A DNA stretch of 64,000 nt from Patescibacteria group bacterium (GTDB taxonomy: Bacteria > Patescibacteriota > JABMPQ01 > JAQVVF01): NCBI GenBank assembly GCA_041662665.1, contig JBAZSC010000003.1:4603-68602 (forward strand), read 5' to 3'. The notes beneath the pieces were generated by a model. The model saw nothing but the letters and a program-made list of their open reading frames with translations. It was not told where the DNA came from and searched no databases. The translations under genes and the position numbers were made by a program. Shown piece by piece: positions 27,999 through 59,900 of the stretch (position 1 is the first letter of the stretch; each line of letters begins with the position of its first letter).

Positions 27999-28108
27999 CA
28001 AATCCCAAATTCCAAACAAATCCCAAATTACAAATTACAAAAATGACGATAGCTTGTAATTTGTGTTTTGTGGATTGTAATTTGTTTGGAATTTGGAGTT
28101 TGTAATTT
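27999..28108. repeat. Palindromic intergenic element, family B (caaatcccaaattccaaacaaat...acaaattacaaa / ttgtaatttgt...tttggaatttgg)
   Basis: Long imperfect inverted repeat between tpiA and fba. Copies at 38306-38428 and 59791-59900. Confidence 0.65.
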
Positions 28109-28110
28109 TT

Positions 28111-28950
28111 ATGTTAATTTCATCTCAGATCTTATTAAAAAAAGCCCAACAAGAGCATTATGCTGTTGGTGCTTTTAATACTTCAGATTTAGAAATTACA
28201 AAAGGAATTGTGAGCGCTTCTGAAGAGATGAATTCGCCAATTATTTTACAAACTTCTGAGGGAGAAATTGTGCATTCTGGCAAAGATATTTTTTTTAATG
28301 CAATGAAAATTTTTGCAGAAAAATCTAAAACTCCAATTAATTTAAATTTAGATCATGGAAAAAGTTTTGAAATGTGCAAATGGGCAGTTGATATTGGCTA
28401 TAATTCTGTAATGATTGATGGTTCAAAATTATCTTTAGACGAAAATATTAAATTAACAAAACAAGTAGTCGATTATGCTCATGAAAGAAGCGTTGTTGTT
28501 GAAGGCGAAATTGGTCTTGTGCCAACACCTGATAAAGGCGAAGAAGTAAAAATCTTAAAAGCTGATCCAAATGAATGTAAAAAATTTGTTGAAGAAACTG
28601 GTTTGGATTTTTTGGCTGTTGGGATTGGCAACGTGCATGGTGAGAACAAAGGAAAGCCAATTTTGGATTTTGAAAGATTAAGTGAAATTTGTAAAGTTGT
28701 TAGTATTCCTTTGGTTTTACATGGTGGTTCAGGAATTTCTGATTTGGATATTAAAAAAGCAATAAGTATGGGAATTTGTAAAATTAATGTTAATACTGAA
28801 CTCCGGCAAGCATTTGTAAAATCTTTGCGTGAATCTTTGGAAGATGAGGACGTGATCAAGCCTTATGATATTATGGAGCCAGTGGAAGATGTGATCAAAA
28901 AGGTTGTTGAGAAGAAGATCGAGATTTTTGGATCTAAAAATAAGATATAA
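28111..28950 (+). CDS. fba: Class II fructose-bisphosphate aldolase
   Basis: LLKKAQQEHYAVGAFN..., LDHG, VEGEIG, LHGGSG class II aldolase motifs. Confidence 0.88.
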   Translation: MLISSQILLKKAQQEHYAVGAFNTSDLEITKGIVSASEEMNSPIILQTSEGEIVHSGKDIFFNAMKIFAEKSKTPINLNLDHGKSFEMCKWAVDIGYNSVMIDGSKLSLDENIKLTKQVVDYAHERSVVVEGEIGLVPTPDKGEEVKILKADPNECKKFVEETGLDFLAVGIGNVHGENKGKPILDFERLSEICKVVSIPLVLHGGSGISDLDIKKAISMGICKINVNTELRQAFVKSLRESLEDEDVIKPYDIMEPVEDVIKKVVEKKIEIFGSKNKI

Positions 28951-28971
28951 AATTGCTCAAATAAAGTTAGT

Positions 28972-29976
28972 ATGTCTAAAACAAAATTTTTAGAATTAAT
29001 CAATTTTTTACAAAAAAACCATAAAGTTTATGGGCCTGTTTTGGATCTGGCAAGCAGATTATTAGTTCGCGAAATAAAAAATCCAGAAGATTTGGTTTTG
29101 AATGGCAGATTGACGCATTATTCTTTTAAAAATTTCTTTTTACCAGCTTGTGAATCTTTGTTTGATTATGATCATCAAAAATTAAAAGAGACAAATTATA
29201 GTTATAAAAAACAAGCAATTGTTGGAATGACAATATCTGATTTAAAAGCATTAGAATTGTATGATCAGGTTTTTGCTAAAGATCCATATTATCAAGAAAG
29301 AAGAAGACAGACTCTGGTGATTGGATATGGTTTGGCGGGCGAAAAAAGTTATTCAGAAGAATTAATTTATGAACAAAAATTTGAGGAAGATATATTAGAA
29401 CATGTTAAATTTGATGTCTTTCTCGAATTAGAATCTAATACGACTAATAAAATCTCTAATGACTTTTGTCACGTTTTTGCTGGATCTGTTGAAGGACAGA
29501 AAGTTTTGGATGGTTTTGGATATAAAGATTATAAAAATATAAAATATGTTGGGCCTATTAAGGAGAACGGTTTAGATAAGACAATGGTCGCTGTTTTTAA
29601 CAAGATGAAAAAGGGTTATGCAAAAAAGATTTGGGAAGATATTGGAAAAAGATGTATAGAATGCGGACAATGCACTTTGGTTTGTCCGACTTGCTATTGT
29701 TTCAGAATTGATGACGAACCAAGTTTAGATAAAGGTAAAGGTAAAAGAATAAGATGTTGGGATGCATGCATGTATCATGAATTTTCAGAAATTTCTGGTA
29801 AGACTAGATTATTGAAAAATACTGAACAGAGAATGTGGTTTTGGTTTTATCATAAATTTGTGAGAATCCCATTCAAATATAAAATACCAGGATGCGTGAA
29901 ATGTGGGCGATGTTCAAGAGTTTGTCCGGTCGATATTGATTTTATGAAGGTTTTGCAGGATGTATTAAAGAGTTAA
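28972..29976 (+). CDS. [NiFe] hydrogenase group 3b-type (sulfhydrogenase-like) beta subunit, 4Fe-4S dicluster protein
   Basis: Two ferredoxin-type motifs CIECGQCTLVCP and CVKCGRCSRVCP. Sits upstream of the FAD/NAD and small/large subunit genes. Confidence 0.7.
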   Translation: MSKTKFLELINFLQKNHKVYGPVLDLASRLLVREIKNPEDLVLNGRLTHYSFKNFFLPACESLFDYDHQKLKETNYSYKKQAIVGMTISDLKALELYDQVFAKDPYYQERRRQTLVIGYGLAGEKSYSEELIYEQKFEEDILEHVKFDVFLELESNTTNKISNDFCHVFAGSVEGQKVLDGFGYKDYKNIKYVGPIKENGLDKTMVAVFNKMKKGYAKKIWEDIGKRCIECGQCTLVCPTCYCFRIDDEPSLDKGKGKRIRCWDACMYHEFSEISGKTRLLKNTEQRMWFWFYHKFVRIPFKYKIPGCVKCGRCSRVCPVDIDFMKVLQDVLKS

Positions 29977-30076
29977 TCGTTGATTTATAAAATGCTTGTA
30001 ACCACAAAGGCACAGAAAATTTTAAGACACAAAAAATGTTAAATTTATTTAGTGTCTTCGTAGATTTTGTGTTTTA

Positions 30077-30943
30077 GTGGTTGCAATGGTTATATCAATT
30101 ATGCTAAATTCGTATAAAACAAAACTTGTAATTATAAAAAGAGTAATTAAAGAATCTTCTGATGTAAAAAGATTTGTTTTAGAATTTGAAAATAAAGTCG
30201 ATCAAGAAAATTTTGATTTTATTCCAGGACAATTTATTAAAGTCTCAGTTCCTGGATTATGCGATGCGCCGTTTACTTTTGGAACAAGCCCAAAAAACAA
30301 AGAAAATTTTGAAATTGCTGTACGAGGAGTCGGAAATTTAACTAATTTTTTGAATCGAATGCAAGTTGGTCAGAAATTAGGAATTAGAGGGCCGTATGGG
30401 AATGGATTTCCAATGGATATAATTAAAAAAAGAAATGTTTTGATTGTTTCTGGAGGTTGCGGATTTGTGCCTTTTAAATCAATTATTGAAGATTATTTAA
30501 TAGATAAAAAAAATTATCAAAGTAAATTCCAGATTTTTTATGGAGCAAGATCTTTTGATGATTTATTATTTAGAGATGATTTTGAAAAATGGGAAAATAA
30601 TGAAATTGAATTGAAATTAATGGTTGACAAGGGAGGCGATGCGATGTGCAAGGATTCGAAGTATAAATGCAATGTTGGTTTAGTGACAGATTTGATTAAA
30701 AATGAAAAATTGGTAGAAAAGCCAGTCGTTTTAGTATGTGGTCCACCAATTATGGTTAAGTTTGTGGTTATGGAATTAGATAAATTATCTATTCCTCATT
30801 CTGATATTTTTGTTTCGTTAGAGCGAAGAATGGAATGCGGAGTTGGAATTTGCGAGCATTGTGCAATCGGTCCTTATTATGTTTGTAAAGATGGACCAGT
30901 GTTTAGTTGGGATAAAATTGAATGGATTCCGGGAGTCGTGTAA
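30077..30943 (+). CDS. Hydrogenase gamma-like subunit: FAD/NAD(P)-binding oxidoreductase with C-terminal 2Fe-2S site (PyrK/HydG-like)
   Basis: Flavin reductase-like fold, with a C-terminal Cys cluster ECGVGICEHCAIG as in PyrK-type electron transfer subunits. Confidence 0.72.
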   Translation: MVAMVISIMLNSYKTKLVIIKRVIKESSDVKRFVLEFENKVDQENFDFIPGQFIKVSVPGLCDAPFTFGTSPKNKENFEIAVRGVGNLTNFLNRMQVGQKLGIRGPYGNGFPMDIIKKRNVLIVSGGCGFVPFKSIIEDYLIDKKNYQSKFQIFYGARSFDDLLFRDDFEKWENNEIELKLMVDKGGDAMCKDSKYKCNVGLVTDLIKNEKLVEKPVVLVCGPPIMVKFVVMELDKLSIPHSDIFVSLERRMECGVGICEHCAIGPYYVCKDGPVFSWDKIEWIPGVV

Positions 30944-31031
30944 AATTAGTAAAATTTATAAAATTAATAAAGCGAGTAATATTTATAAATTCGAAAATTA
31001 AGAAATTGAATATTATTTTAAATTTTTTAGC

Positions 31032-31247
31032 ATGTGCTTAGCGATTCCTGGAAAAATTGTTGATATAAATAAGGATGGATATTTGATTGATTATGAATCA
31101 AAGAAAGTTCAGGTTGCCAATTCTTTAATAAATAATGTAAAATTAGGTGATTGGGTAATTGTGCAAAATAGGTTTATAATTAATAGATTAGATATTCAAG
31201 ATAATGATTTGTTCTTTTCAAATCTCAAAGTAAAGGAGGAAAAGTGA
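31032..31247 (+). CDS. hypC: Hydrogenase maturation factor HypC/HybG family
   Basis: N-terminal MCLAIPGKIV (the HypC MC(L/I)(A/G)(I/V)P signature); 71 aa. Confidence 0.85.
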   Translation: MCLAIPGKIVDINKDGYLIDYESKKVQVANSLINNVKLGDWVIVQNRFIINRLDIQDNDLFFSNLKVKEEK

Positions 31248-31918
31248 TGAGCAGTAAAGAAGGATTGATTGAAGCAGCAAGATTTTCTTGGAATTGTCAG
31301 CCAGATAATAAAATGCTTTGTGATGGATTATATGGTTTTGTTCGTGGTAATGGCGGACATGATGTTGAATGGATTGAAAGGCAATTAAAGAATCTATATT
31401 CATATTTTTATTATCTTTTGATTGCAAGGCAGAATGGTATTTCTGATCCTTTTGATTTGAATGTTGTGCAGGCGCATTGGATTGGCAATGATTTGTTGAG
31501 AATTGTTAAACCTGAAGATGTAAAAAAATTACAGGCTACAGGAGAACTTAAGGCTTTGCCAAAAGAAAAAGAAATGATGATTTTATGGTTGCTGAATAAT
31601 CTAGTAAAATCAGGATCTTGTCCTCATCATAGTTTTCATGCAACTGTAAATGAAAAATTGAATCCAGATTTAATTCGTCAAGGAAAAAGATGTTTTGTTG
31701 AATGTGGCAAGGTAATAGAATTAGAAGATAATTATTTTATTGTTGATATTGATGGAAATACAAGAAAGTGTGGTTATGGTTTTTTGAAAGGTAAGATTCA
31801 AGTTGGCAATTTGGTTTTAATCCATTTGAATGAAGGTCGAAGGATTGCAGATTTGTATGAAAAAATGAGATTGGACGATTGGTCTGCTATCACAATGAGT
31901 TCTTTAAAATTGATTTAA
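31244..31918 (+). CDS. Hypothetical protein with a HypC-like OB-fold at its C-terminus; translationally coupled to hypC by an ATGA overlap
   Basis: C-terminal ...ECGKVIELEDNYFIVDIDGNTRKCGYGFLKGKIQVGNLVLIHLNEG parallels the HypC core (G.V..I......A.VDfgG..r.v....v...vGDyVLVHvG) but lacks the N-terminal Met-Cys. N-terminal 130 aa is novel and Cys/His-bearing. Confidence 0.4.
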   Translation: MMSSKEGLIEAARFSWNCQPDNKMLCDGLYGFVRGNGGHDVEWIERQLKNLYSYFYYLLIARQNGISDPFDLNVVQAHWIGNDLLRIVKPEDVKKLQATGELKALPKEKEMMILWLLNNLVKSGSCPHHSFHATVNEKLNPDLIRQGKRCFVECGKVIELEDNYFIVDIDGNTRKCGYGFLKGKIQVGNLVLIHLNEGRRIADLYEKMRLDDWSAITMSSLKLI

Positions 31919-31999
31919 TTCAGATTTCTGATCTTTAATCTTTCGATTAGAGATTTTTTACCTGCATTAAATATTTTGCGAAAATATTTTTAAATAAAA

Positions 32000-32794
32000 A
32001 TGGAACAACAAAAATTAAAAGTAGCGATGGTTTCTTTAACTTCCTGTGAAGGATGCTATTTTAGTTTGCTTGATTTGGGAAATGAATTTTTGGAAATCGC
32101 AGATAAAATTGATTTAGTTAAATTTAGATTACTTAAGGAAGACCCGCCTTCGCTCCTAGCGAATTCGGAGCTTCGGCGGGCAAAGGAAAAATATGATATA
32201 ACTTTTGTTGAAGGAAGTCCGATTTCAGAAGATAATTTTGATAAATTAATTGATTTAAGATTAAGGACGAAAAAAATGATAGTTTTGGGAGGATGTGCTC
32301 ATACTGGTGGAACGTATGCAATGCGAAATCATACAGACAAGAAAAAAGCCTGCAAATATGTTTATCCAAAAACGAATAAAAAAATTTTTAATCCTAATAT
32401 TTTAGAATTATCAAAAGTTGTACATATCGATGGGATTATTCCAACTTGTCCAGTTAATCCAAGAGAATTCGTAAGATTTATGTCTTTTGTTTTGAATAGT
32501 TTGACTTTTAAAATTACTGAGAGGCCAGTTTGTTATGAATGTCAGTTAGCGCAAACTTCTTGTTTATTAAAAATGGGATTGCCATGTTTTGGACCAATGG
32601 CTTTGGGTGGTTGCGATGCTCCTTGTCCTAGAGCAGGTATGCCATGCCAATTATGTCGTGGGCCAATGAAAGAAATACAATGGGATAATTTTGAAAAGAA
32701 AATGAAAGATATTATGGGAGCAAAAGTTTGGGAAAAAGATTATAATGAAATATTGGAAATTTTTAATGTTAAAGACAAGATAAGTGTTGAATAA
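32000..32794 (+). CDS. [NiFe] hydrogenase small (delta) subunit
   Basis: VAMVSLTSCEGCYFSLLD N-terminal proximal-cluster motif, plus C-terminal Cys motifs (CPVNP, CYEC, CDAPC, CQLC). Carries an in-frame GC-rich repeat insertion at 32143-32186. Confidence 0.82.
   Translation: MEQQKLKVAMVSLTSCEGCYFSLLDLGNEFLEIADKIDLVKFRLLKEDPPSLLANSELRRAKEKYDITFVEGSPISEDNFDKLIDLRLRTKKMIVLGGCAHTGGTYAMRNHTDKKKACKYVYPKTNKKIFNPNILELSKVVHIDGIIPTCPVNPREFVRFMSFVLNSLTFKITERPVCYECQLAQTSCLLKMGLPCFGPMALGGCDAPCPRAGMPCQLCRGPMKEIQWDNFEKKMKDIMGAKVWEKDYNEILEIFNVKDKISVE
32143..32186. repeat. GC-rich hairpin repeat, copy c, inserted in-frame within the hydrogenase small-subunit CDS
   Basis: cccgccttcgctcctagcgaattcggagcttcggcgggcaaagg, encoding DPPSLLANSELRRAKE. 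Same family as the 1571, 57534 and 62075 copies. Confidence 0.65.
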
Positions 32795-32903
32795 GTTAGA
32801 CTAGTTAGATTAGTTAGATTTGTTTCGGAAATTATGATATTCGGAAATTAACTACCCAACTTTTAGTTGGGGTTCGTCAAACTTTAGTTTGAAGTCGTAG
32901 ATA

Positions 32904-33269: not shown

Positions 33270-33282
33270 TTTGTACTATTTT

Positions 33283-37058: not shown

Positions 37059-38300
37059 ATGAAGATAAACAAAATTAGAGCAAGAGAAATCCTTGATTCA
37101 AGAGGAGAGCCAACTGTAGAAGTGAAGGTCGATCTTGATGATGGAAAATTTGGAATAGCAAAAGTTCCTTCTGGTGCTTCAACAGGCGAGCATGAGGCTT
37201 TGGAATTAAGGGATAATGACAAAAAAAGATATGGAGGCAAAGGAGTAATGAGGGCATGTAAAAATGTTAATGATATTATTTCGGAAAGATTAGTTGGAAT
37301 GGATGTTTTTAAGCAAGAAAAAATCGATCGAACTTTGATAGCATTGGATGGAACTCCAAATAAATCAAAGTTAGGAGCAAACGCAATTCTTGGAGTGTCG
37401 TTGGCTTGTTGTGTTGCAGCAGCTAATTCTAAAGAAATAGAATTATATCAATATATTGGTGAAATTTTTGGGAATAATAATTTTGTTTTACCACAAGCAT
37501 ATTTTAATATCATTAATGGTGGAAAGCATGCTGATTCTGGATTGGATGTCCAAGAATTCATGATTGTGCCAAAAGCAATTAATTTTTTTGAAAAAGTAAG
37601 AGTTGGATCTGAAGTTTTTCATGCTTTGAAAGATATTTTGCAAAGAAGAGAATATTCAGTTGGTGTTGGAGATGAAGGTGGCTTTGCACCAAAATTAGAT
37701 AGCAATGAAGATGCGATTGAAACAATTTTGAGAGCAATTGAAGAAGCAGGATATAAACCAGGTGCTGATGTTAATATTGCATTGGATGTTGCTGCATCTT
37801 CTTTTTATAATAAAGAAAAAGGATATTGTTTGAATTCTGGTAAATGCATTGAGTCAGATCATTTAATAGCAATGTTTTCGGATTGGATTAGCAAATATCC
37901 AATAAAAATGATTGAAGATTTATTGGCTGAAGATGATTGGGAAGGTTGGAAGAAAGCTACAGAAAAATTAGGCGATAAAGTTCAAATTGTCGGCGATGAT
38001 TTATTTGTAACGAATATAGAAAGAGTGAAAAAAGGAATAAAAGAAAATTGCGCAAATTCTGTTTTGATAAAGCTAAATCAAATTGGAACTTTGACAGAAA
38101 CTTTTGAATGCATAAAATTAGCAAAATCAAAAGGATATGCAACAATGATTTCACATCGATCTGGTGAAACAATTGATACTTTTATTGCTGATCTTTGTGT
38201 TGGTACAAATTCCGCACAAATTAAATCTGGATCATTATCTCGTGGTGAAAGAGTATGCAAATATAATAGGTTGATGGAGATAGAGGAATTGTTGAAATAA
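37059..38300 (+). CDS. eno: Enolase
   Basis: [22 protein letters not shown]..., SHRSGETED-like, IKLNQIGT motifs. Confidence 0.95.
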
Positions 38301-38305
38301 TTAAA

Positions 38306-38428
38306 AATTACAAATCTCAAATTCCAAACAAAATCCAAATTACAAATTACAAAGTCGACGGTTTGTTTTTTGTGTTTTGTATATTGTAATTTGTTTGGGA
38401 TTTGGAATTTGTGATTTGGGATTTAATG
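38306..38428. repeat. Palindromic intergenic element, family B, between eno and gpmI
   Basis: caaatctcaaattccaaacaaaatccaaattacaaattacaaa ... ttgtaatttgtttgggatttggaatttgtgatttggg. Confidence 0.65.
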
Positions 38429-38437
38429 CAAAAACTA

Positions 38438-40850: not shown

Positions 40851-41549
40851 ATGCACGAACAAATTGGCGAAATAAGTCAAAAAGATATTATGGAATCAGG
40901 TGTTGAAAAAACTCCAGGTTTAGAAATTGCAAAAACCGAAGAATCAGAAGAAGCTGTAAAATTGTTAGACGAAATTGCAGGAGATATTGAGAATGATCTA
41001 AATATAAAAGCTGAAAGAATGATAATGCTTAGAGAAGCTTTGGGAAAATTGCGATTTAATTTTGGAGCGGAAGGCGAGACAATGACAGCTGAAGAATTAA
41101 AAAAAGTTCCTGATATGAAAGAAAATGTTGAGATTTATGAAGCTATGAAACGAGATTTTCATCTTGGTCGGGCAACACGAATTGATGAAGTTACTTATCT
41201 TACTCCAGGAATGGCAGAAGAAATAATCTTTGTTTATGATCCTGATGAAACTATGTCATTAATGAGTTTAAAAGTAATGACTGATAAACTAGCTGAAGTT
41301 TTGGGTAATGCAGAAGAAGTTAACATAAGGTTACCAAAATTAAATATTTTAACTGGAAAACAGTTGCGAAGTCTTTTGGCAAAAACTAATACTGTTAGTT
41401 TGCGGGGTTTGGATACCGTGCAGGTTGATGGAGATTTAGCGATAACTATAGACCAATGTGCTGGAAGAATTGTTATGGATGACAAGCAAATTGATAGGTT
41501 AAAAGAACTTTTTCCGAAGTTCGAATTTCGTAGAATTATGGGGCATTAA
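40851..41549 (+). CDS. Unknown-family protein, paralog 1 of a tandem pair
   Basis: 232 aa. Shared N-terminal motif (EISQKDIMESGxEKTPGLExAKT) and C-terminus (ELFPxxxFRxxMGH) with the gene at 41612. Confidence 0.6.
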   Translation: MHEQIGEISQKDIMESGVEKTPGLEIAKTEESEEAVKLLDEIAGDIENDLNIKAERMIMLREALGKLRFNFGAEGETMTAEELKKVPDMKENVEIYEAMKRDFHLGRATRIDEVTYLTPGMAEEIIFVYDPDETMSLMSLKVMTDKLAEVLGNAEEVNIRLPKLNILTGKQLRSLLAKTNTVSLRGLDTVQVDGDLAITIDQCAGRIVMDDKQIDRLKELFPKFEFRRIMGH

Positions 41550-41611: not shown

Positions 41612-42310
41612 ATGAAAGAACAATTTGGTGAAATAAGTCAAAAAGATATTATGGAATCAGGTGCTGAAAAGACACCTGGTTTAGAATTGGCAAAAACAAA
41701 AGAATTGGATGAAGTTGCAAGTCGAGCTGATGAAATTGCTGATGATTTAAAAAATGATCGAAATATAAAAGCTGAACAATTGATTGGATTAGAAGTGGCT
41801 TTGGGAAAATTGAAGGTTAATTTTGGCGCTGAAGGTGAGACTATGACAGTTGAAGAATTAAAAAAAGTTCCTGATGCAAAAGAAAATGCTAGACTTTATA
41901 GGATAATTGAAAATGCAGTTAAAGAAGGAAAGGCAATTGGGATGGAAGAAGTTACTTATCTTACTCCTGGTATAGCTAGAAAGTTAGTATCTGTTTTAGC
42001 GCCATATCAGATTGCGGATTTGTTAAATCTTAAAGTAATGACTGATGGAGTAGCTGAAGTTTTAGGTAAAGCAGAAAAAGTAAGTATAAGTTCAGCAGCA
42101 TTGGAAAAAATAACATGGAGACAATTGAATGCTTTGTTTGCAAAAACTAATACTGTTCATATGTGGGGTTTAGAAGTGGATAAAAATGATAGGAAATTAG
42201 CTAGAATTATTAATTTACATTCAGAACGAATGGTTATGAATGGTAGTCAAATTGATAAATTACATGAATTATTTCCAGATTTAAATTTTCGCGGACTTAT
42301 GGGCCATTAA
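41612..42310 (+). CDS. Unknown-family protein, paralog 2 of a tandem pair
   Basis: 232 aa, about 50% identical to 40851..41549 along the full length. Confidence 0.6.
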   Translation: MKEQFGEISQKDIMESGAEKTPGLELAKTKELDEVASRADEIADDLKNDRNIKAEQLIGLEVALGKLKVNFGAEGETMTVEELKKVPDAKENARLYRIIENAVKEGKAIGMEEVTYLTPGIARKLVSVLAPYQIADLLNLKVMTDGVAEVLGKAEKVSISSAALEKITWRQLNALFAKTNTVHMWGLEVDKNDRKLARIINLHSERMVMNGSQIDKLHELFPDLNFRGLMGH

Positions 42311-45441: not shown

Positions 45442-47856
45442 ATGTATTTTTTTAATACAAAAATAAACAAAAAAGTACGAGGGGGGGGGCTTAATGGAAA
45501 GGTAAAATTTTTTAGTATTTCAAAATACAAGATTCTTTTGAGTCTTTTTTTTGTTTTGGGGGTTTGTTTTTGTTTTGGTAAAATAACGTTTGCTTATCCA
45601 CCCTATACACCAAATTCTGATTTAGTTGTTGTGGGTCCTTATGATACTGCACCAACAAGTGGAGTAAAAAATATAGGTGATGGAGTAGGCGATGGAGTTG
45701 CTAAACGTTATTGGTTAAACGGCGGTCAAAAATACAGAATTCGGCAGAATGGAACCATTAGTAAAGCTAAGGTCTGGGTACCAAACTCTAATGGAACATT
45801 TACTTTTTTTCAAATTCAAATATGGAGACCAAATGGAACAAATTTTGATTTAGTAGGAGAATCGGAAAATTTTTATTCTTCAATTACAAAAAATCAAGTT
45901 AATGAGATCACTTTATCTTCTCCTATCTCCAATGTTCAAGAAGGAGATTATTATGGAATTGTAATTTCGATGAATGGTGATACTGGGTCAATGTATGCAA
46001 GAAGTGGTTTGACCGGAGTCAATCTATACTATACTTCGACGACGCCTAGTGATACTAATTATAATTGGTTGGCAAATTCTAAACTATCAGGATATGCTAT
46101 TCCACTAGAATTATATATGCAAGCGCCACAGGGTGTTTTTATCGGTGATTCTATTGTGGCTGGTCATCCTGCTAATTATAGTTTCTTAGAAACTACAGCA
46201 ACAACAGATATTAGTTCTACTATTGAGAAACAATTTAGTAATCTTACAGGATATACTTATCAAAATATGGGTATTGGTTCACAGACAACTTCTAACATAT
46301 CTGCTCGTTTTACCAATGATGCATTAAATTTAAAACCTAGATTTATAGTAGTTGAAGGAGGAGTAAATGATTTAGCTGGAAGTGTAGATAAGTCTGTTTT
46401 TATTGCAAATTGGACGAGCATGTTGGATGCGGTACAAGCAGATGATGATATAACAACAATAATAATTTTGAAAATCTTACCTTGGACAGATGGAACAAAT
46501 ATTCAAATGCAAACTAGAGATGATTGGAACGCATCATTAGTTACTTTGTCATCAGGATATTCAAAGGCTATAGTTGTTGATGCGAGTACTTATGTGGGGC
46601 AGTTTCGTGCAGGTGGTGATGTTGGAAATCTTTGGGATATACAACTCGCTTATGATGAGTCGGGAGTACATTTTAATCAAGCAGGAAATTCTCAAATAGC
46701 ACAAGCAATTGCCGATGCATTAGATAGTGATGCTCCAGTTACAACTGCTCTTCCATTAGGGGGAATATATAACAGTTTTAAAACAGTAACTTTATCTTGT
46801 GATGATGGTAGCGGACAAGGATGTAATAAAACATATTACACAATTGACGGGACAGATCCAACTACAAGCTCACCTGAATATACTGTTCCTCTAGATATTT
46901 CTTCTAATACTACTTTAAAATTCTTTTCAGTTGATGTTGTTGATAACCAAGAATCAGTAAAAACAGAAGTTTATGTTATTGACACAGAATCACCAGTAAC
47001 AACTGCTACTCCAGCTGGTGGAACATACGATAGCGTTCAAGTAGTTACTTTGACAACAGATGAAGCAGCAACAACATATTACACATTAGATGGCACAGAT
47101 CCAACAATTTTATCGTTAGTCTATTCTTTGCCAATCACAATTTCTGAAACATCAGTTCTTAAATTTTTTTCAGTTGATAATGTTGGAAATTCCGAAAGTG
47201 TAAAAACTGAAGAATATATTATTAATACTGAAGCTCCATTTATTCCTTTCATTGAAAAACTTAATTTAGAAAACGTAATTCTAAATCAAACCTATCAAAG
47301 TCAACAAAACAATGCAGATCTTCTTTTCTATCTTCTTCCTAAACAAAAAGTAATCAAAGATCTATATATTAAATTAATCAGAAACAAGAAGAAACACCTT
47401 AATGGTTTTACAAAAAAGAATAGTTATCCAGGTTATTTAAAACTATTATCAAATATTGGTACAGTAAAAAAAGCTTATCAAAAAAATGTTAATAAGCATA
47501 TTAATTTTAGAGTCTCTGTTAGATATTCTAAAACAAAATTAAACAAGACTAACATCAAAGAAAAGAATCTAAGATTATTTATTAAAGATCGAGATGGTAT
47601 TTGGCGAGGACCATACAGAATTTATCAAAACAAAACAACTCATACTCTAAAATTTAAGATTAGAAATTATTTAGTTAGACAACCGAAAAATCCTGTTCCA
47701 AATCCACTTGATGTCAAAACAAAAAATAGACCATTTGCGCCATCATTTTACTTTAGAACTTTGAAAAAGATTAAATTCGTAATTGCAGAGAAAAATACAT
47801 TATCTAAATTAACAAATTCTGAAACATCGGATAGCCAAGATTTTGATTTTGAATAA
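45442..47856 (+). CDS. Large secreted surface protein: leader, SGNH/GDSL hydrolase domain, two CHB_HEX_C-like (chitobiase/beta-hexosaminidase C-terminal-like) repeats, conserved basic C-terminal domain
   Basis: Leader FFSISKYKILLSLFFVLGVC matches the 22718 gene. GDSL block VFIGDSIVAG, block III GGVNDL and block V DESGVHFNQAG. Tandem ~80-aa repeats (YYTIDGTDPTTSS... / YYTLDGTDPT...). C-terminal 200 aa about 95% identical to the 22718 protein. G9 tract at 45481-45489. Confidence 0.8.
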   Translation: MYFFNTKINKKVRGGGLNGKVKFFSISKYKILLSLFFVLGVCFCFGKITFAYPPYTPNSDLVVVGPYDTAPTSGVKNIGDGVGDGVAKRYWLNGGQKYRIRQNGTISKAKVWVPNSNGTFTFFQIQIWRPNGTNFDLVGESENFYSSITKNQVNEITLSSPISNVQEGDYYGIVISMNGDTGSMYARSGLTGVNLYYTSTTPSDTNYNWLANSKLSGYAIPLELYMQAPQGVFIGDSIVAGHPANYSFLETTATTDISSTIEKQFSNLTGYTYQNMGIGSQTTSNISARFTNDALNLKPRFIVVEGGVNDLAGSVDKSVFIANWTSMLDAVQADDDITTIIILKILPWTDGTNIQMQTRDDWNASLVTLSSGYSKAIVVDASTYVGQFRAGGDVGNLWDIQLAYDESGVHFNQAGNSQIAQAIADALDSDAPVTTALPLGGIYNSFKTVTLSCDDGSGQGCNKTYYTIDGTDPTTSSPEYTVPLDISSNTTLKFFSVDVVDNQESVKTEVYVIDTESPVTTATPAGGTYDSVQVVTLTTDEAATTYYTLDGTDPTILSLVYSLPITISETSVLKFFSVDNVGNSESVKTEEYIINTEAPFIPFIEKLNLENVILNQTYQSQQNNADLLFYLLPKQKVIKDLYIKLIRNKKKHLNGFTKKNSYPGYLKLLSNIGTVKKAYQKNVNKHINFRVSVRYSKTKLNKTNIKEKNLRLFIKDRDGIWRGPYRIYQNKTTHTLKFKIRNYLVRQPKNPVPNPLDVKTKNRPFAPSFYFRTLKKIKFVIAEKNTLSKLTNSETSDSQDFDFE
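45481..45489 (+). repeat. Homopolymeric G9 tract inside the 5' coding region (codes RGGG)
   Basis: gggggggggc in a roughly 30% GC genome; absent from the paralog at 22718. Confidence 0.9.
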
Positions 47857-49050: not shown

Positions 49051-49618
49051 GACTCAAGTAAGTTGAGTGATTGCTCTGTACATGGTTTGCAAAAATTATG
49101 TGCGGAGAGGAAAGTCCGGGCATCATTTGGAGGTTGGATGTGAGAAATGGGAAATGGGAAAAGAAAAATTCTCATTTTCTCATATCCCATATCCAACTTC
49201 CAATTTCGTGGTAGTTCCGAAATGGAACCAAGTATAAGAAATTGCTAACTGCTAATAGTTTATAGCTAATAGTTGATAGTTGTTTCGAAGCTAGGACCAG
49301 TGCCACAGAGACGTAAACTACCGGGGAACTAGTAACTAGGAAACTAGTAATTAGGGAACTGGAAAAGGTGAAAAGAGTGGTGTAAAAGACCACAGATTGT
49401 CATGGTGACATGGCAATGGGGTAAACTCTACCTGATGCAACCCAATATAAACTGGGGCATGAATTGTCAAGCAATTGACAATCCAGAGAGATAATCACTG
49501 AATCTCTAATTTGCACTAATTTAGCACAAATAGCACGAATAACTATTTGTGAAATTCGTGATAAATTTGTGCCTATTAGAGATTCTACAGAACCTGGCTT
49601 ATAGACTTACTTGAGTCA
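49051..49618 (+). ncRNA. rnpB: RNase P RNA (bacterial type A), unusually long at about 568 nt owing to AT-rich helix expansions
   Basis: P4 strands GAGGAAAGTCCGGGC (49087-49101) and ACAGAACCTGGCTTA (49588-49602). Conserved AAGGTGAAAAGAGTGGTGTAAAAGACCAC. 13-bp P1 pairing gactcaagtaagt / acttacttgagtc. Confidence 0.85.
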
Positions 49619-49625
49619 TTTTAAT

Positions 49626-49658
49626 CTGCCTACGTCTTGAGGGACTTCGGTAGACAAG
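49626..49658. repeat. GC-rich hairpin repeat, copy f, just 3' of rnpB
   Basis: tctgcctacgtcttgagggacttcggtagacaag. Confidence 0.55.
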
Positions 49659-51169: not shown

Positions 51170-51312
51170 TGCGAAATCCTGAATTCTAAATCCTAAACTC
51201 TAAACAAATCAAAAATCCAAATATTAAAATTCAAAGAGTTGGGTTTTGAAATTTAGGTTTTATGTTTTGAATTTATTTAGAATTTAGAGTTTAGAAATTA
51301 GAATTTTAATTT

Positions 51313-54134: not shown

Positions 54135-54146
54135 TTTTATTTAAGT

Positions 54147-55337
54147 ATGATAATCGGTATCGATATAAGATCATTAATGGAAGGGAAAAGAAGCGGAGTA
54201 CAGCAATATCTGATTAATTTAATGCGCAATTTGTTTGTTATAGATTCTAAAAATCAATACAAACTATTTTGTAATGCTTATAAAAAAAATAGTTTGGATG
54301 TCAGTGAATTTGAAAAATTTCCTAACGTCAAAGTTTGCAAATTTAATTATCCTAATAAGGTTTTGAATACTAGTTTCTGGTTGTTGAAATATCCAAAGAT
54401 CGATAGTTTGATCAAAGATTTGGATATTTTTTTTGCGCCAAATATTTTGTTTTCAGCCATTTCTCCTAATTGTAAATTTGTAACAACAATTCATGATTTG
54501 TCATTTGATTATTTTAGACGATTTTATTCAATGAAGCGGAGATTTTGGCATAATATTGTTGGACCGAAAAAAAAGATTAAGAAATCCGATGCTGTAATTT
54601 GTGTTTCGGAGTCGACGGCGAATGATTTGATTAATAAATATGGTGTTTCTAAAGATAAAGTGCATGTTGTATATTCGGGCATAGAGAATAGACAACAGGA
54701 AACAGAAAACAGGAAACTAGATATTAAAAATAAATATAATTTGTCGGATAATTTTGTGTTGTTTCTTGGAGCAATGGAGCCAAGGAAAAATATTGTGGGA
54801 TTGATTGAAGCCTTTGAGTTACTTAAAAAACAAGAAAACAATAAAACAAAAAAACAAACTGACTACAAATTACAAATAACAAATAATTTTCAAAATTTGA
54901 AACTTGTTGTTGCTGGTTCTTCTGGCTGGTTAGAAAAAAGAGTGAATAAAATTTATGAGCAAAGTAAATTTAAAAATGATATAATGTTTTTAGGATATGT
55001 TGATGAAAAAGATAAATCTGCTTTGTACAGTTTAGCAAAATTGTTTGTTTATCCGTCTTTTTATGAAGGATTTGGTTTTCCGCCCCTTGAAGCAATGGCT
55101 TGCAATTGTCCAGTTGTAACTTCTAATGTTGGATCATTATCTGAAGTTTGTGAAAAAGCAGCGATTTTAGTTGATCCATATAATGTTAATGAAATCTTTG
55201 AAGCAATGAAGCAAGGACTTTCTGATGAAAAGTTGCGTAAATATTTGATTGCTGAAGGGCAAAAACAAGTTGTTAAGTTTAATTGGCAGAATTGTGCGAG
55301 GGAGACGCTTAAGGTATTCGAAATGTTAAATAGTTGA
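54147..55337 (+). CDS. Glycosyltransferase family 4
   Basis: EGFGFPPLEAMACNCPVVTSNVGSLSEV. Confidence 0.82.
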   Translation: MIIGIDIRSLMEGKRSGVQQYLINLMRNLFVIDSKNQYKLFCNAYKKNSLDVSEFEKFPNVKVCKFNYPNKVLNTSFWLLKYPKIDSLIKDLDIFFAPNILFSAISPNCKFVTTIHDLSFDYFRRFYSMKRRFWHNIVGPKKKIKKSDAVICVSESTANDLINKYGVSKDKVHVVYSGIENRQQETENRKLDIKNKYNLSDNFVLFLGAMEPRKNIVGLIEAFELLKKQENNKTKKQTDYKLQITNNFQNLKLVVAGSSGWLEKRVNKIYEQSKFKNDIMFLGYVDEKDKSALYSLAKLFVYPSFYEGFGFPPLEAMACNCPVVTSNVGSLSEVCEKAAILVDPYNVNEIFEAMKQGLSDEKLRKYLIAEGQKQVVKFNWQNCARETLKVFEMLNS

Positions 55338-55340
55338 TGA

Positions 55341-55509
55341 ATTTTTAATTTTCAATTTCTAATTTCTATTAAATTTTTAATGCATTAATTTCTAAACGCT
55401 TTCGTCAAAGGTTTAAAAATTAGTTAATTAGAGTTAAAAGCGACATTAAGGAGCTTTTAACGGGTAGTAACCCTTTAATAGAAATTGAAAATTAGAAATT
55501 AGAAATTTT
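55341..55509. repeat. Palindromic intergenic element, family A, longest copy
   Basis: ttcaatttctaatttctat ... gaaattgaaaattagaaattagaaatttt. Contains the internal hairpin gttaaaagc...gcttttaac, which also occurs at 43385-43412. Confidence 0.65.
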
Positions 55510-55511
55510 CT

Positions 55512-56639
55512 ATGCGAATTGCAATTGACGCTCGTTTCTTTGGTCCCTTTGGAAAAGGCCTTGGGCGTTATACTGAAAAATTAATAAAATATTTAGAAAA
55601 AGTTGATCAGAAAAATGATTATACTATTTTTTTGCGTAAAGAAAATTTTGATTATTATATAGTTGAAAACAAAAATTTTAAAAAAGAATTGGCTGATTTT
55701 AAATGGTATACATTAAATGAGCAAAGAAATATGCCAAAAGTTTTGAAAAAAGGTAATTTTGATTTAGTCCATTTTCCGCATTTTAATGTTCCATTATTTT
55801 ATAAAGGCGATTTTGTAGTAACAATTCATGATTTGATTCTGCTTGATTTTCCAACAAAAAGAACAACTACGCTTGGACCGATAAAATATGCCTTAAAAAA
55901 TATGGCTTATAAAAAAGTTATTAGCTCTGCAGTTAAAAAAGCAAAAAAAGTAATAACAGTTTCCGAATATACTAAAAAAAGATTAATAGAGCATTTTGAT
56001 TTAGATGATGATAAAATTGTGGTAACATATGAAGCTTGCGAGAAAATTCATCCAGAAAAAGAAGTGATAAATAAAGATTTTTTAAGAATGCATAAGATTG
56101 AAAAGAATTATCTATTGTATGTTGGCAATGCATATCCGCATAAAAATCTTGAAAGATTATTGAAAGTTTTTAAAAATTTAAGAAAAGATAATTTTGATTA
56201 TCAGCTTGTTTTAGTTGGAAAAAATGATTATTTTTATCAAAGATTACAAGATTTAGCAAAAGAGTTAGGATTGCTAGATTCTAACCAAGTTGTTTTTTAT
56301 GGTTTTGCTAAAGATAGCGATCTTGCTACTTTATATCAAAATGCATCTTTATATGTTTTTCCATCTTTTATTGAGGGTTTTGGTTTGCCACCTCTTGAAG
56401 CAATGAGCTATGGTTTGCCAGTTGTAACTTCAAAAACTTCTTGTTTGCCAGAAATTTTGGGAGATGCAGCGCAATATTTTGATCCAAAAATAGAGAAAGA
56501 TATTGCTGATGTCATTTTAAATGTTATTAATGATAATATTTTAAAGGAAGAAATGAAGAGTAAGGGCTTAGAGCAAGTGAAAAAATATAGTTGGGAAAGA
56601 TGTGCAAAAGAAACGTTAGATGTGTACGAGAGTTTATAA
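55512..56639 (+). CDS. Glycosyltransferase family 4
   Basis: EGFGLPPLEAMSYGLPVVTSKTSCLPEI. Confidence 0.82.
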   Translation: MRIAIDARFFGPFGKGLGRYTEKLIKYLEKVDQKNDYTIFLRKENFDYYIVENKNFKKELADFKWYTLNEQRNMPKVLKKGNFDLVHFPHFNVPLFYKGDFVVTIHDLILLDFPTKRTTTLGPIKYALKNMAYKKVISSAVKKAKKVITVSEYTKKRLIEHFDLDDDKIVVTYEACEKIHPEKEVINKDFLRMHKIEKNYLLYVGNAYPHKNLERLLKVFKNLRKDNFDYQLVLVGKNDYFYQRLQDLAKELGLLDSNQVVFYGFAKDSDLATLYQNASLYVFPSFIEGFGLPPLEAMSYGLPVVTSKTSCLPEILGDAAQYFDPKIEKDIADVILNVINDNILKEEMKSKGLEQVKKYSWERCAKETLDVYESL

Positions 56640-56801
56640 AGTTATAAGGTTATAAAGTTGGAGCATTATTCATGCTCTATTTTTTTTGATAAAAATATGT
56701 TATTATAAATTCGCGAATAGACACAAATGAAGCACAAATTTCACTAATGAATATCTGTGTATTTGTGTGATTTGTGCTAGAATAGTGCAAATTCGAGATT
56801 C

Positions 56802-59780
56802 ATGATAAACAAAAACAAATTTAGAATTATTGGTGATGTAGCGGATTTTAATAATGGTCCGGCAGTTTTAGATTTGCGTGAAATTGGAAAAGCAAGAAAA
56901 CTTGAAGAAAAGCAGAGATTAGAGAAAGATTTGATTAATCTAAGATCATCGCAGAAAAACGCAGAAGCGAACGTAGAAAACGCAGAAGCGAACGCAGAAA
57001 ATGCGGAAACTAATGCGGAAAATGAGGAAGCTAACTTACTTGTTGATCAGGTAGGTGCAGAAAAAGCAGTAGAACAAATACAAATACAAGAATTACAGAA
57101 ACCTAAAGTTCAAGAAAAAAATGATGAGCAAATTTTAGTTCAGCATGAAGATCAAGTGAAGCCCGTTGTTTTACCTCAAGCAGAAATTGTTGCTAAACCG
57201 TTAGTGATTAAGGATGAAAAACCAAAAGTAAAAAAAATGTCTTTTAGCAAGAATTGGTTGCAAAGACAAGCAGAAAAGAAAAAAATAAGAAATGCAAAAA
57301 TAGCTGAGATTAAAAGAATAAAATTAGAAAAACAACAGAAAGAACAGGAATTAAAGAAAGCAAGAATTTTAGAACAGCAAAATATAAAATTAAAAAAAGA
57401 ATTAGAAAAAAGAGAAGCAAAAAAATTATGGCTTTTAGCAAAACAGGAAGCTAAACGTAAAAAGTTAGAGGAGAAAAAGGCATTACAAGAAAAAATATTA
57501 TTACAAAAACAACAACTAAAATTAAAAAAAGAATCCGCCTTCGCTCTTGCTAGAGCTACGGCGGACAAAGAAAGAATTTTGGAAAAGCAAAGATTGGAAT
57601 TAGAATTGAAAGCAAGACAGGAAGAATTGAGACTTAGAAAAATAGCCGAAAAGCAAGAATTAGAATTAAGATTGCAATTAGAACAACAAGAAAAAGAAGA
57701 GAGAAAATTAATTGAACAGCAAAGAAAAAGTTTTCAAGAACAGCAAAAACCAAAAGTTGATTATTTATTATTATTTAAAAATAGATTTGGCAAGAGTTTT
57801 AGATTCTCATTAATCTTTTTTGTTCTGGTTTGCGCTATTTTAATGTCTGGAATTAAGGGTTTAGATTTTTTTAGTTCTCAAGCAAAAAATACAAAATCAA
57901 AAATATTAAGCGATGCAATGGTTGCTTATCAATATATGGGATCAGCAACTAATTCAGCGACAAGCAAGGATTTTGAAATGGCATCTTATAAATTTGGCGT
58001 GGCTGGAGATAGATTTTTGAATGCGCAAAAAGATTTGAATCAATATGGCGAAGTTTTGACTTCAGTTCTAAAAATTATGCCTGGCGCATCAGCTGTTAGA
58101 TCAGGCGATAATTTGCTGTCAGCTGGCGCTAATTTATCACAAGCTGGAGAATATTTATCATCAGCAGTAACTCCTTTTAATGATTTAGGCAGTTTTATTA
58201 GCTTGCCTAGTGATGAAAATAGCAATAACCAAAAAACTACTTTAACAGAATTATTATCTGAAGCAACGAATAATTTGAATTTAGCAATTGGAAAATTAGA
58301 TGCTGCTAACTCAGATTTAAAGAATGTAAAAGTTTCTGATTTGCCTTCTGATGTAGCGCCAAAAATTGCAACAATTAAAGATAATTTGCCAACGATTAGT
58401 TCTGATTTAAAAACTTTGACTTCTTATTCTGATAATTTTTTGCAAATGCTTGGACATAAGGGCGCAAAAAGATATTTAGTATTATTTGAAAACAATAGGG
58501 AATTAAGACCTACTGGCGGATTTATGGGAACATATGCTTTAGTTGATATTGATTCTGGTAAGATAAAAAATATTAAAATAGAAGGTCCATATAATTTGGA
58601 TGGAAATTTAATGGAAAAAATAATTGCTCCAGAGCCATTACGATTGATTCAAGTTAAATTATTTTTGAGAGATTCTAATTGGTTTTTAGATTTTCCAATG
58701 TCAGCAAAAAAAGTAATGTCAATGTATGAAAAATCAGGCGGGCCTACAGTTGATGGCGTTTTTACAGTTACAGGTAATGTGATGGAAGCTTTGTTAGGAG
58801 TAACAGGCGAAATTGATATGCCAGAATATGGAACAGCAGTCAATGCTGATAATTTTTTTGATAAAACGCAGTTTGAAGTGGAATATGATTATGACAAACA
58901 AGAAAATGAACCAAAGAAATTTTTGGCAGATCTTTTTCCAGTATTCCTTGACAGATTGTCAAATTTAAGCAAGGATAAATGGTTGGAAACTGCAAATGTG
59001 ATGTATAAGATGCTTGATCAGAAAGATATTATGATGTATTTTAATGATGAAAAACTAGAAAATTTTGTAAAAGAATTTAATTGGACTGGCGAGATAAAGA
59101 ATCCAAGCAAAGATTATTTATCAACTGTTATAACAAATATTGGCGGAGGAAAAACAGATGATGTTATTGACCAAAATATTTTTCATGAAGCAGAAATTCA
59201 AGATGATGGTTCAGTGATTGATACAATAACAGTAACAAGAATTCATAATGGCGATCCAAATGATATGTGGACTAGTGTTAAGAATATGGCTTATATGAGA
59301 TTTTATGTTCCACTAGGAAGCGAGATGATTGAAGCTCGAGGTTTTGATAAAGAATTTTGGGGAGTTCTTCGACCGTTAGAAGAAGGTTCTAACCCTGATC
59401 CTTTGATTTCAAATATTGAAAATAATACAAAAGTTAATAATGAAAATGGAATTAGAATTATGGAAGAAGGCGGTAAGACTGTTTTTGCAAATTGGATTGG
59501 TATCGAATGTGGTCAAGCAAAAACAATGGTGATAAAATATAGATTACCTTTTAAAGTGCAAAAGACTGGTCAAGATGCAGCGACTTCTTATGCAATGTTT
59601 TTTCAAAAACAACCAGGTACAAAAGCGTTTGAAACAACAAGTATTTTGAAATATCCAATAGATTATTATGTTAATTGGAAATATTCTTCTGATAATATGT
59701 TGACTGAAGTTTCTGATGGATTGCAATATAGGACAAATTTGAATAAAGATAAAGCATATGCAGTGGTATTTGTGAAATAG
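56802..59780 (+). CDS. Large envelope protein: charged coiled-coil N-terminal region with oligopeptide repeats, one TM helix, and a large extracytoplasmic domain that appears DUF4012-like
   Basis: E/K/Q-rich 300 aa with NAEAN repeats; TM FRFSLIFFVLVCAILMSGI; then LVLFENNRELRPTGGFMGTYALVDID, resembling the DUF4012 N.E.R.TGGF.G signature (recalled from memory, not searched). Confidence 0.55.
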   Translation: MINKNKFRIIGDVADFNNGPAVLDLREIGKARKLEEKQRLEKDLINLRSSQKNAEANVENAEANAENAETNAENEEANLLVDQVGAEKAVEQIQIQELQKPKVQEKNDEQILVQHEDQVKPVVLPQAEIVAKPLVIKDEKPKVKKMSFSKNWLQRQAEKKKIRNAKIAEIKRIKLEKQQKEQELKKARILEQQNIKLKKELEKREAKKLWLLAKQEAKRKKLEEKKALQEKILLQKQQLKLKKESAFALARATADKERILEKQRLELELKARQEELRLRKIAEKQELELRLQLEQQEKEERKLIEQQRKSFQEQQKPKVDYLLLFKNRFGKSFRFSLIFFVLVCAILMSGIKGLDFFSSQAKNTKSKILSDAMVAYQYMGSATNSATSKDFEMASYKFGVAGDRFLNAQKDLNQYGEVLTSVLKIMPGASAVRSGDNLLSAGANLSQAGEYLSSAVTPFNDLGSFISLPSDENSNNQKTTLTELLSEATNNLNLAIGKLDAANSDLKNVKVSDLPSDVAPKIATIKDNLPTISSDLKTLTSYSDNFLQMLGHKGAKRYLVLFENNRELRPTGGFMGTYALVDIDSGKIKNIKIEGPYNLDGNLMEKIIAPEPLRLIQVKLFLRDSNWFLDFPMSAKKVMSMYEKSGGPTVDGVFTVTGNVMEALLGVTGEIDMPEYGTAVNADNFFDKTQFEVEYDYDKQENEPKKFLADLFPVFLDRLSNLSKDKWLETANVMYKMLDQKDIMMYFNDEKLENFVKEFNWTGEIKNPSKDYLSTVITNIGGGKTDDVIDQNIFHEAEIQDDGSVIDTITVTRIHNGDPNDMWTSVKNMAYMRFYVPLGSEMIEARGFDKEFWGVLRPLEEGSNPDPLISNIENNTKVNNENGIRIMEEGGKTVFANWIGIECGQAKTMVIKYRLPFKVQKTGQDAATSYAMFFQKQPGTKAFETTSILKYPIDYYVNWKYSSDNMLTEVSDGLQYRTNLNKDKAYAVVFVK
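57534..57570. repeat. GC-rich hairpin repeat, copy d, in-frame within the DUF4012-like CDS
   Basis: tccgccttcgctcttgctagagctacggcggacaaag, encoding SAFALARATADKE. Confidence 0.6.
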
Positions 59781-59790
59781 TTAGTAAAGC

Positions 59791-59900
59791 TACAAATTCC
59801 AAATTCCAAACAAATTACAAACCACAAGTCACAAACTTTTTGTTTTTGTAATTTGGGATTTGTAGTTTGTTTGGAATTTGGTGCTTGTAATTTGTAATTT
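59791..59900. repeat. Palindromic intergenic element, family B, between the DUF4012-like gene and murJ
   Basis: caaattccaaattccaaacaaattacaaaccacaag ... ttgtaatttgggatttgtagtttgtttggaatttggtg. Confidence 0.65.

Follow-up and report, generated by a model that had tools for sequence, protein, structure and literature searches.

Convergent arrays of seven-nucleotide units fill operon junctions in a Patescibacteria genome and belong to a hairpin design found in many phyla

The Correia elements of Neisseria, also called nemis, are transposable elements of the miniature inverted-repeat type (MITEs) that are palindromic, intergenic and about 100-150 bp long, and that are co-transcribed with their flanking genes; once in RNA, their hairpins are cut by RNase III, thereby altering mRNA stability. 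Further traits of theirs are terminal inverted repeats of 26 bp, a duplicated TA, an IHF site and restriction to their genus. The present work deals with three intergenic copies of a hairpin-forming element, of about 115-125 nt each, on a contig of a Patescibacteria group bacterium (GenBank assembly GCA_041662665.1, contig JBAZSC010000003.1, positions 4,603 to 68,602 of the forward strand; this whole stretch of 64,000 nucleotides is referred to as the window). Their proposed mode of action is modelled, by analogy, on that of the Correia elements, from which they differ in that the 26-bp terminal inverted repeats, the TA duplication, the IHF site and the genus restriction are not seen.

Other relatives can be found among the sequences called repetitive extragenic palindromes (REP), the bacterial interspersed mosaic elements (BIMEs) and the REP doublets forming hairpins (REPINs), the latter consisting of two units in inverted order that form a long hairpin (PMC3116915). 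As in these systems, the present elements are dispersed extragenic palindromes that can form hairpins in mRNA or single-stranded DNA, that lie within and after operons, and that belong to lineage-specific families persisting at orthologous sites, no target-site duplication being visible. However, they carry neither a GTAG nor a CGTC head, their arms are AU-rich and made of 7-nt units whereas the REP palindrome is GC-rich and spans 20-40 bp, and their grammar extends across phyla while REP sequences are lineage-specific. Besides, no gene coding for the REP-associated tyrosine transposase (RAYT) was seen in the at least 120 loci described below, a genome-wide search for RAYT not having been made.

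Heptameric repeats come closest in terms of unit size. Such repeats have been described as (GGGAATC)n in Xanthomonas and GGGGA(C/T)T in Nostoc (Rehm 2015, PMC4692102) and as TAACTGA (MacGregor 2015, PMC4679880). The repeats of Xanthomonas and Nostoc show a preference for about four units, and 70 of the 186 Xanthomonas arrays are inverted pairs that could fold into stem-loops (PMC4692102); short tandemly repeated repetitive sequences (STRRs) are located inside the RNase P RNA of cyanobacteria (Vioque 1997, as related by a citing paper). The present elements share with these repeats the 7-nt tandem units, the intergenic position near stops and starts, the favoured number of about four units, the cross-phylum distribution and an ATTCC/GGAAT core, and the cyanobacterial insertions in RNase P RNA are paralleled by word-periodic hairpins in the RNase P RNA of the window. 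In contrast, the published units (CCCCAAT, TTGGTCA, CAACAGT, GGGAATC, TAACTGA) are absent from the three copies, which are also devoid of G-quadruplex potential, and the present arrays form an element of fixed length with an AAAC punctuation, sharp ends and a strict A/C-first order, while the Xanthomonas inverted pairs, judged by their description, appear to be G-first. Literature searches by concept returned, as relatives, only papers on heptamers, STRRs, REPINs and MITEs, and a search by sequence string returned no paper of the library that prints these sequences. As far as could be found, the cross-phylum heptamer-palindrome design has not previously been described as a class.

The three copies had first been noticed as an intergenic palindromic family at 27999-28108, 38306-38428 and 59791-59900. 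They are present at these places, and a profile hidden Markov model (HMM) of foreign arms refines their limits to 27992-28108, 38300-38423 and 59787-59899 (Table 1). Two points go beyond that first reading, namely that the arms are arrays of 7-nt units and that the family is the local instance of a class present in many phyla. Indeed, the copies are mirror-image heptamer arrays and not simple palindromes. The 5' arm follows the grammar (AAANNCC)x3, AAAC, (AAANNNC)x4 and is separated by a short loop from a complementary arm of GNNNTTT units; in all three copies, CAA recurs with a period of 7 in a three-unit block, then after the 4-nt step of the AAAC in a four-unit block, and the 3' arm mirrors the 5' arm through TTG and GTTT. 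The copies start with AAAT and end with ATTT, copy 2 being 82-88% and copy 3 72-76% identical to copy 1.

Table 1. Arms and loops of the three copies and of a diverged hairpin (positions are those of the window).
Feature	Position	Strand	Units or sequence	Support
Copy 1, 5' arm	27992-28040	+	(AATAACC) AAATCCC AAATTCC AAAC AAATCCC AAATTAC AAATTAC AAA	3+4 CAA anchors, period 7; HMM E 8.8e-9
Copy 1, loop/centre	28041-28060	+	AATGACGATAGCTTG...	fold
Copy 1, 3' arm	28061-28108	+	GNNNTTT units + GTTT	HMM E 7.1e-8
Copy 2, 5' arm	38300-38353	+	AAATTAC AAATCTC AAATTCC AAAC AAAATCC AAATTAC AAATTAC AAA	HMM E 6.9e-9
Copy 2, loop	38354-38370	+	GTCGACGGTTTG...	fold
Copy 2, 3' arm	38371-38423	+		HMM E 4.9e-6
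Copy 3, 5' arm	59787-59834	+	AAGCTAC AAATTCC AAATTCC AAAC AAATTAC AAACCAC AAGTCAC AAA	HMM E 1.5e-7
Copy 3, loop	59835-59845	+	CTTTTTGTTTT	fold
Copy 3, 3' arm	59846-59899	+		HMM E 1.5e-10
Diverged 'T-variant' hairpin	51182-51305	+	TAAATCC TAAACTC TAAAC AAATC... / ...TTTAGAATTTAGAGTTTAGAA	fold z -5.2

The long imperfect hairpins initially proposed for the copies are significant in terms of RNA structure prediction. The minimum free energies of copies 1, 2 and 3 as RNA are -42.0, -41.1 and -44.1 kcal/mol, with z-scores of -7.1, -6.5 and -7.7, none of 200 shuffles folding equally well; each stem is imperfect and AU-rich, with about 45-50 bp, and the reverse strands fold nearly as stably as the forward ones. 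Since the outermost pairs given by RNAfold were too noisy to set boundaries, anchored profiles were used in their place. The window has a GC content of 31% and its intergenic DNA is repetitive, so that a mere chance resemblance of AT-rich, low-complexity spacers comes to mind. This explanation is refuted: besides the fold z-scores, all six arms are recovered at E-values of 1.5e-10 to 4.9e-6 by a model from which the window was excluded, all five exact occurrences of the 15-mer CAAATTCCAAACAAA in the window lie within the three copies, and the element between tpiA and fba is found in identical form in two other samples. The similarity thus exceeds what AT-rich low complexity, one of the two outcomes that would have spoken against the original prediction (the other being a lack of significant stems), could account for.

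The coordinates of the flanking codons also bear out that the copies fill their gaps from stop to start, at junctions (tpiA|fba, eno|gpmI and DUF4012|murJ) whose gene identities are supported by Pfam. Between the tpiA stop (27985-27987) and the fba ATG (28111), copy 1 starts 5 nt after the stop and ends 2 nt before the ATG; copy 2 begins at the eno stop itself (38298-38300), upstream of the gpmI ATG at 38437; and the start of copy 3 lies 7 nt downstream of the DUF4012 stop (59778-59780), its end 3 nt ahead of the murJ ATG (59903). The distances are therefore 0-7 nt from the stop and 2-13 nt to the next ATG. As had been noticed for gpmI, mechanical open reading frame (ORF) starts fall inside 3' arms, at TTG 38377 for gpmI in copy 2 and likewise at TTG 28093 for fba in copy 1. 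The real starts are the ATGs at 28111 and 38437: the 279-aa fba product is 100% identical to a database protein, and the gpmI domain begins at residue 4.

In order to follow the design outside the window, the pattern AAATTCCAAACAAA-N40-70-TTTGTTTGG was scanned in GTDB species genomes, which yielded at least 120 loci, of which about 80 are genuine elements of the same kind. They are found in Patescibacteria (Gottesman-, Buchanan-, Morani-, Falkow- and 'Saccharibacteria'), Bacteroidales, Omnitrophota, Planctomycetota, Acidobacteriota, Aminicenantes, Bdellovibrionales, Nitrospirota, WOR-3, KSB1, Dadabacteria and Desulfobacterota, and in metagenome-assembled genomes (MAGs) of Gammaproteobacteria. 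Eight cyanobacterial loci from Nostocales and others (L022, L025, L055, L057, L083, L086, L104 and L108) were set aside as coincidental, the match lying in a conserved, non-periodic stretch of IS200/IS605 TnpB/TnpA, and a handful of further matches are coincidental too. When 61 clean foreign elements are anchored on their core, three more AA(A/G)NNCC units appear upstream and three more units downstream of the AAAC, and the information content falls from 1.0 to 0.1 bit at -21/-22, that is, 21 nt upstream of the core. This unit layout, together with the abrupt end of conservation, points to a discrete element of fixed design. The profile HMM, built from 93 foreign arms with the window sequences excluded, recovers exactly the six arms of the window, the next match having an E-value of 1.3. 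The words themselves vary widely (AAATTCC, AAGCACC, AAGAAAC, AATAACC). In Aminicenantes, Acidobacteriota and Bacteroidales genomes, near-identical multi-copy sets have conserved loops and a variable number of outer units, and the main difference between two orthologues from Dadabacteria is an indel of 14 nt, i.e., of two units.

The orientation of the arrays is a further shared trait: the arm rich in A and C always comes before the one rich in G and T and, the element being a palindrome, this polarity holds on either strand. Period-7 arrays detected in the fetched loci independently of the way in which these were ascertained comprise 8 or 9 pairs that are C-first and none that is genuinely G-first. 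In a metagenome collection, the exact mirror pattern (G-first) was matched 28 times, of which about one case is genuine (L152), the others being due to chance or to junctions between adjoining C-first elements; the C-first scan concerned a different collection, the GTDB species genomes, and its 120 loci are a lower bound.

Comparison with relatives indicates how such elements come and go. The tpiA|fba junction is occupied in the window and in all relatives examined (L123, L124 and L125), with the same architecture and other units: the syntenic relatives, whose Fba shows 83-86% protein identity, carry a hairpin of 146-147 nt reading AATAATC AAGAAAC AAGATAC AAAC AAATTAA.... The eno|gpmI and map|ruvX junctions are occupied in relatives too, by a different word family, and many other junctions hold an element in one genome versus a gap of 3-20 nt in another, so that gain, loss and replacement are seen at many junctions. 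At DUF4012|murJ, the window and L127 (MurJ 89% identical) have gaps of 122 and 119 nt, respectively, both with an element, whereas the gaps of L128 and L129 (78% for both) measure only 18 and 13 nt, and the protein ends flanking the junction are conserved in all four. This contrast between occupied and empty states shows that elements are gained within operon junctions. The empty gaps of L128 (1098-1115) and L129 (1604-1616) are themselves small palindromes (GAAATA..TATTTC and AGTAAT.TAG.ATTACT, respectively), which might conceivably act as seeds or as targets of the long elements. Besides, a copy is closer to the other copies of the genome in which it lies than to its positional orthologues, as if each genome had its 'dialect': the L127 element at DUF4012|murJ uses AAGAAAC, as does the tpiA|fba element of that lineage (L125/L127), and in the window the tpiA|fba and DUF4012|murJ elements both use AAATTCC units.

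A MITE-like family, which had been listed among the possible identities of the copies, fits these observations in several respects. Terminal inverted repeats are present in the form of inverted arrays with a sharp outer boundary, presence and absence at an orthologous site are documented at DUF4012|murJ, and, regarding near-identical copies, those of the window are 72-88% alike while near-identical sets exist in other genomes. In this context, the elements could be purely selfish, MITE- or REPIN-like, with no host function, their hairpin and arrays serving as recognition features for a transposase acting in trans and their presence in gaps being harmless. Such a reading would account for the near-identical families with defined ends, for the strict polarity, which terminal inverted repeats would be expected to show, for the turnover at the junctions of relatives and for changes by whole units such as the Dadabacteria indel. 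Nevertheless, neither the anchored profile nor the comparison of occupied with empty junctions nor the alignments of multi-copy sets show a target-site duplication, although an element that leaves none is conceivable. When 2160 ORFs from 120 of these loci (8 kb each) were clustered all against all, no recurrent neighbour emerged, transposases occurring only in the coincidental cyanobacterial IS200/IS605 loci and near no true element. In the same 8-kb loci, the lone arms found are merely halves of palindromes and no autonomous insertion sequence has the same ends. Likewise, no matches were obtained in viral contigs (IMG/VR), INPHARED phages or PLSDB plasmids, although the low-complexity filter of BLAST may hide some. 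Known bacterial MITEs are moreover overwhelmingly genus-specific (97.4% in a survey of 183,232 genomes; PMC11602168), which makes a cross-phylum design unusual. The conservation described next also argues against a purely selfish nature, which we therefore regard as unlikely. An integron attC site (RYYYAAC ... GTTRRRY) was rejected as well, GTTTGGA being a misfit to GTTRRRY and the flanks being syntenic housekeeping genes.

Between L123 and L125, the tpiA|fba element differs at 3 of 147 nt (2.0%), compared to 42 of the 253 four-fold sites of the flanking genes (16.6%; binomial p = 1e-8) and to 12 and 11 differences in the stretches of 150 coding nucleotides that adjoin it on the two sides. At this one locus and in this one species pair, the element evolves about eight times more slowly than four-fold sites. 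Homogenization by gene conversion cannot explain this low divergence, given that paralogous copies in the L123/L125 lineage are only about 80% alike, and purifying selection would be the simpler reading. An element more conserved than the coding sequence that adjoins it is hardly mere filler.

The elements are best read as dispersed repeats, non-coding and with a length of about 120 nt. Regarding their function, we tentatively favour, by analogy with REP and Correia elements, a co-transcribed and constrained intercistronic hairpin acting as an exonuclease barrier or as an RNase III site, a proposal that is well possible while falling somewhat short of probable. In such a scheme, the element would spread as DNA into the very short spaces that separate genes and, lying inside operons, would be transcribed as part of a polycistronic mRNA, in which the two arms would pair, imperfectly, into an AU-rich hairpin with a stem of about 45-50 bp directly between a stop and the next start. 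As for REP/BIME or Correia (nemis) sequences, this hairpin might constitute a barrier to 3'-to-5' exonucleases and/or an entry site for RNase III, and might thereby set the relative stability of the neighbouring cistrons.

The original prediction had put forward processing sites, which the copies may be, as well as terminators or attenuators, and an intrinsic, possibly bidirectional, terminator would indeed be in keeping with a hairpin placed directly after a stop codon, with the TTTTT that follows copies 1 and 3, and with the location of 12 of the 54 classifiable foreign elements between convergent genes (tandem:convergent:divergent = 34:12:8, from crude ORF calls). However, copy 2 has no T-run, the stems of 45-50 bp are AU-rich and mismatched, and a terminator scan calls nothing at the copies, whereas ordinary terminators with a GC stem and a T-run lie elsewhere in the window, at 2283, 3167, 20633, 47872, 56659 and 63763. 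In addition, the copies are set within conserved operon junctions (the murJ junction measures 13-18 nt in relatives) without room for a new promoter, and like hairpins stand between genes for ribosomal proteins and within that of the RNase P RNA, where they must be transcribed through. Canonical terminators elsewhere and copies inside operons thus make a terminator or attenuator role highly improbable, and that part of the original prediction is not supported. As regards a promoter in the 3' arm, the best candidate, TTGGAA-18-TAATTT, has about 7 of 12 matches by eye, and a scan reported none there; it was discarded. A Rho-loading site and Chi-like arrays were set aside as poorly fitting or untestable, and so was a G-quadruplex, the 3' arms being mostly without four G3 runs.

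Several observations weigh against the co-transcribed hairpin that we favour. Co-transcription, cleavage and stabilization are steps that we infer, and the conservation test concerns one locus in one species pair, in which all three substitutions disrupt pairs. At the variable positions of the units, the arms of the same element are no more complementary than those of different elements; in global arm alignments, same-element pairs are only slightly above different-element pairs (0.23 vs 0.18), and in the window the complementarity of arms taken from different copies (81-87%) equals that within a copy (78-82%). The sense strand is slightly more stable than the antisense strand, a difference confounded by the G+T skew, and the distribution of the foreign elements among gap types, as far as crude ORF calls can tell, reveals no clear avoidance of promoter regions. 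The evolutionary support for base pairing itself is thus weak, and the conserved entity is the convergent array of oriented units, an arrangement that yields a hairpin of about -40 kcal/mol in any transcript. Covariation was dropped as evidence for structure, the changes from CC to CT and from GG to AG being dialect-wide and the arms not co-varying unit by unit; a strand-asymmetry test of G·U versus A·C, meant to detect selection on the sense RNA, was not used either, as it was weak (p = 0.03) and confounded by the same skew.

Another reading takes the oriented heptamer itself, and not pairing, as what is conserved: the arrays would be covered by a widely conserved factor, each subunit of which reads about 7 nt, and the hairpin would be a by-product of their convergent order. 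This possible, if doubtful, explanation is in line with the conservation of unit grammar, block size and polarity across phyla, with the lack of correlation between the variable positions of the two arms, with the sequence-level constraint between L123 and L125 and with the period-7 autocorrelation throughout the intergenic DNA of the window. MacGregor (2015, PMC4679880) notes that each heptamer is bound by one CspB protein, and puts forward S1, Csp or CsrA for other heptamer repeats. For the present elements, candidate readers would be a cold-shock-domain protein on the U/G-rich RNA arm or an omega-like ribbon-helix-helix protein on double-stranded DNA heptads. Omega recognizes WATCACW heptads, which serve as operators and centromere of plasmid pSM19035, with converging pairs preferred to diverging ones; this is a plasmid-specific system, in which 7-10 heptads lie upstream of three promoters. 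The contiguous 7-bp units, direct and inverted, and the orientation preference recall the present arrays, in which the word AATCACA fits WATCACW. However, the present elements are dispersed chromosomal repeats, and neither an omega-like gene nor any other candidate protein was identified, no protein family recurring beside the elements in the at least 120 loci. In addition, the unit sequences are very variable, which is hard to square with one sequence-specific reader.

More broadly, it is conceivable, with considerable doubt, that a conserved trans-acting reader or maintenance machinery underlies the shared grammar, the blocks of three to four units, the AAAC punctuation and the A/C-first polarity; such machinery may be a protein whose subunits each bind one unit, on RNA or DNA, or else a copying enzyme that has so far escaped description. 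In that case, the elements would be the cis-sites of a widespread, uncharacterized post-transcriptional or chromosomal system, mostly in uncultivated bacteria, and not lineage-specific junk. Patescibacteria have small, streamlined genomes, yet about 11% of this window is intergenic DNA in which 7-nt-periodic hairpins dominate. The occurrence of the same design in many phyla, nearly always in MAGs, suggests that operon architecture or genome maintenance has a layer that is common but overlooked and that would escape notice in model organisms. On a practical level, the elements mislead gene callers, as with the false TTG starts of fba and gpmI, and inflate RNA genes such as that of RNase P RNA; they also offer a testable handle on the over-representation of heptameric repeats in bacterial intergenic DNA.

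The copies are not the sole hairpins of the window, in which all genes lie on one strand and nearly all gaps of at least 40 nt contain a hairpin or an array of 7-9-nt words. These 46 gaps amount to 6847 nt, or 10.7% of the window, and their autocorrelation reaches 0.375, 0.359 and 0.337 at lags 7, 14 and 21 versus about 0.31, coding DNA showing lag 3 only. The T-variant of Table 1, located between a sugar transferase and a GT1 gene, has the architecture of the three copies with every unit changed from CC to CT and, on the opposite side, from GG to AG; it gives no match with the foreign-arm HMM and resembles the map|ruvX elements of the relatives L123 and L124. A related, C-first hairpin of CAATTTT / AAAATTG units lies at 10389-10462 between two genes of the ribosomal-protein operon, and the same CAATTTT word family fills the eno|gpmI gap of L123. 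Long hairpins of AATTTCT / AGAAATT units form another family, at 947-1088, 22128-22264 and 55338-55511, with arms that are 81-90% complementary. At the map|ruvX junction orthologous to a site of this family, L123 and L124 have instead an element of AAATTCT units, and this difference of one base per unit suggests a concerted change of all units. Further intergenic arrays, some direct and some forming hairpins, are made of the words AGTTATAA, GTTAGAT, CGAAT, ACGCTGAT, TTAACAG and GTAGAAA.

The class A RNase P RNA at 49055-49617 (137.9 bits) is the only Rfam match of the window at gathering score, the E-value mode adding only miRNA-precursor hairpins far below threshold. It spans 563 nt for a 367-nt model, owing to word-periodic hairpin insertions: 144 nt stand in place of 15 model positions, about 22 nt are inserted in a P12-like loop (AACTAGT AACTAGG AAACTAGT AATTAGG), and another 71 nt or so near the 3' end. 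Directly 3' of this gene (49620-49658) is a member of a separate, GC-rich hairpin family, 'NCC(G/A)CCTTCG ... CTTCGG(C/T)GGACAAG', which is sometimes nested and also occurs in gaps at 1571-1634, 6682-6715, 62075-62110 and 62113-62175, others being apparently inside ORFs (32144-32190 and 57535-57575).

Finally, a 300-nt repeat of 83% identity (25089-25388 and 47237-47536) lies within large ORFs of 996 and 827 aa, and two 232-aa paralogues stand in tandem at 40851-41549 and 41612-42310; both look like gene-family duplications unrelated to the hairpins. The apparent gap at 15446-15694 is not empty, as it holds a short ORF of 61 residues (15467-15652), below the 80-aa cut-off, that resembles the zinc-ribbon ribosomal protein S14.

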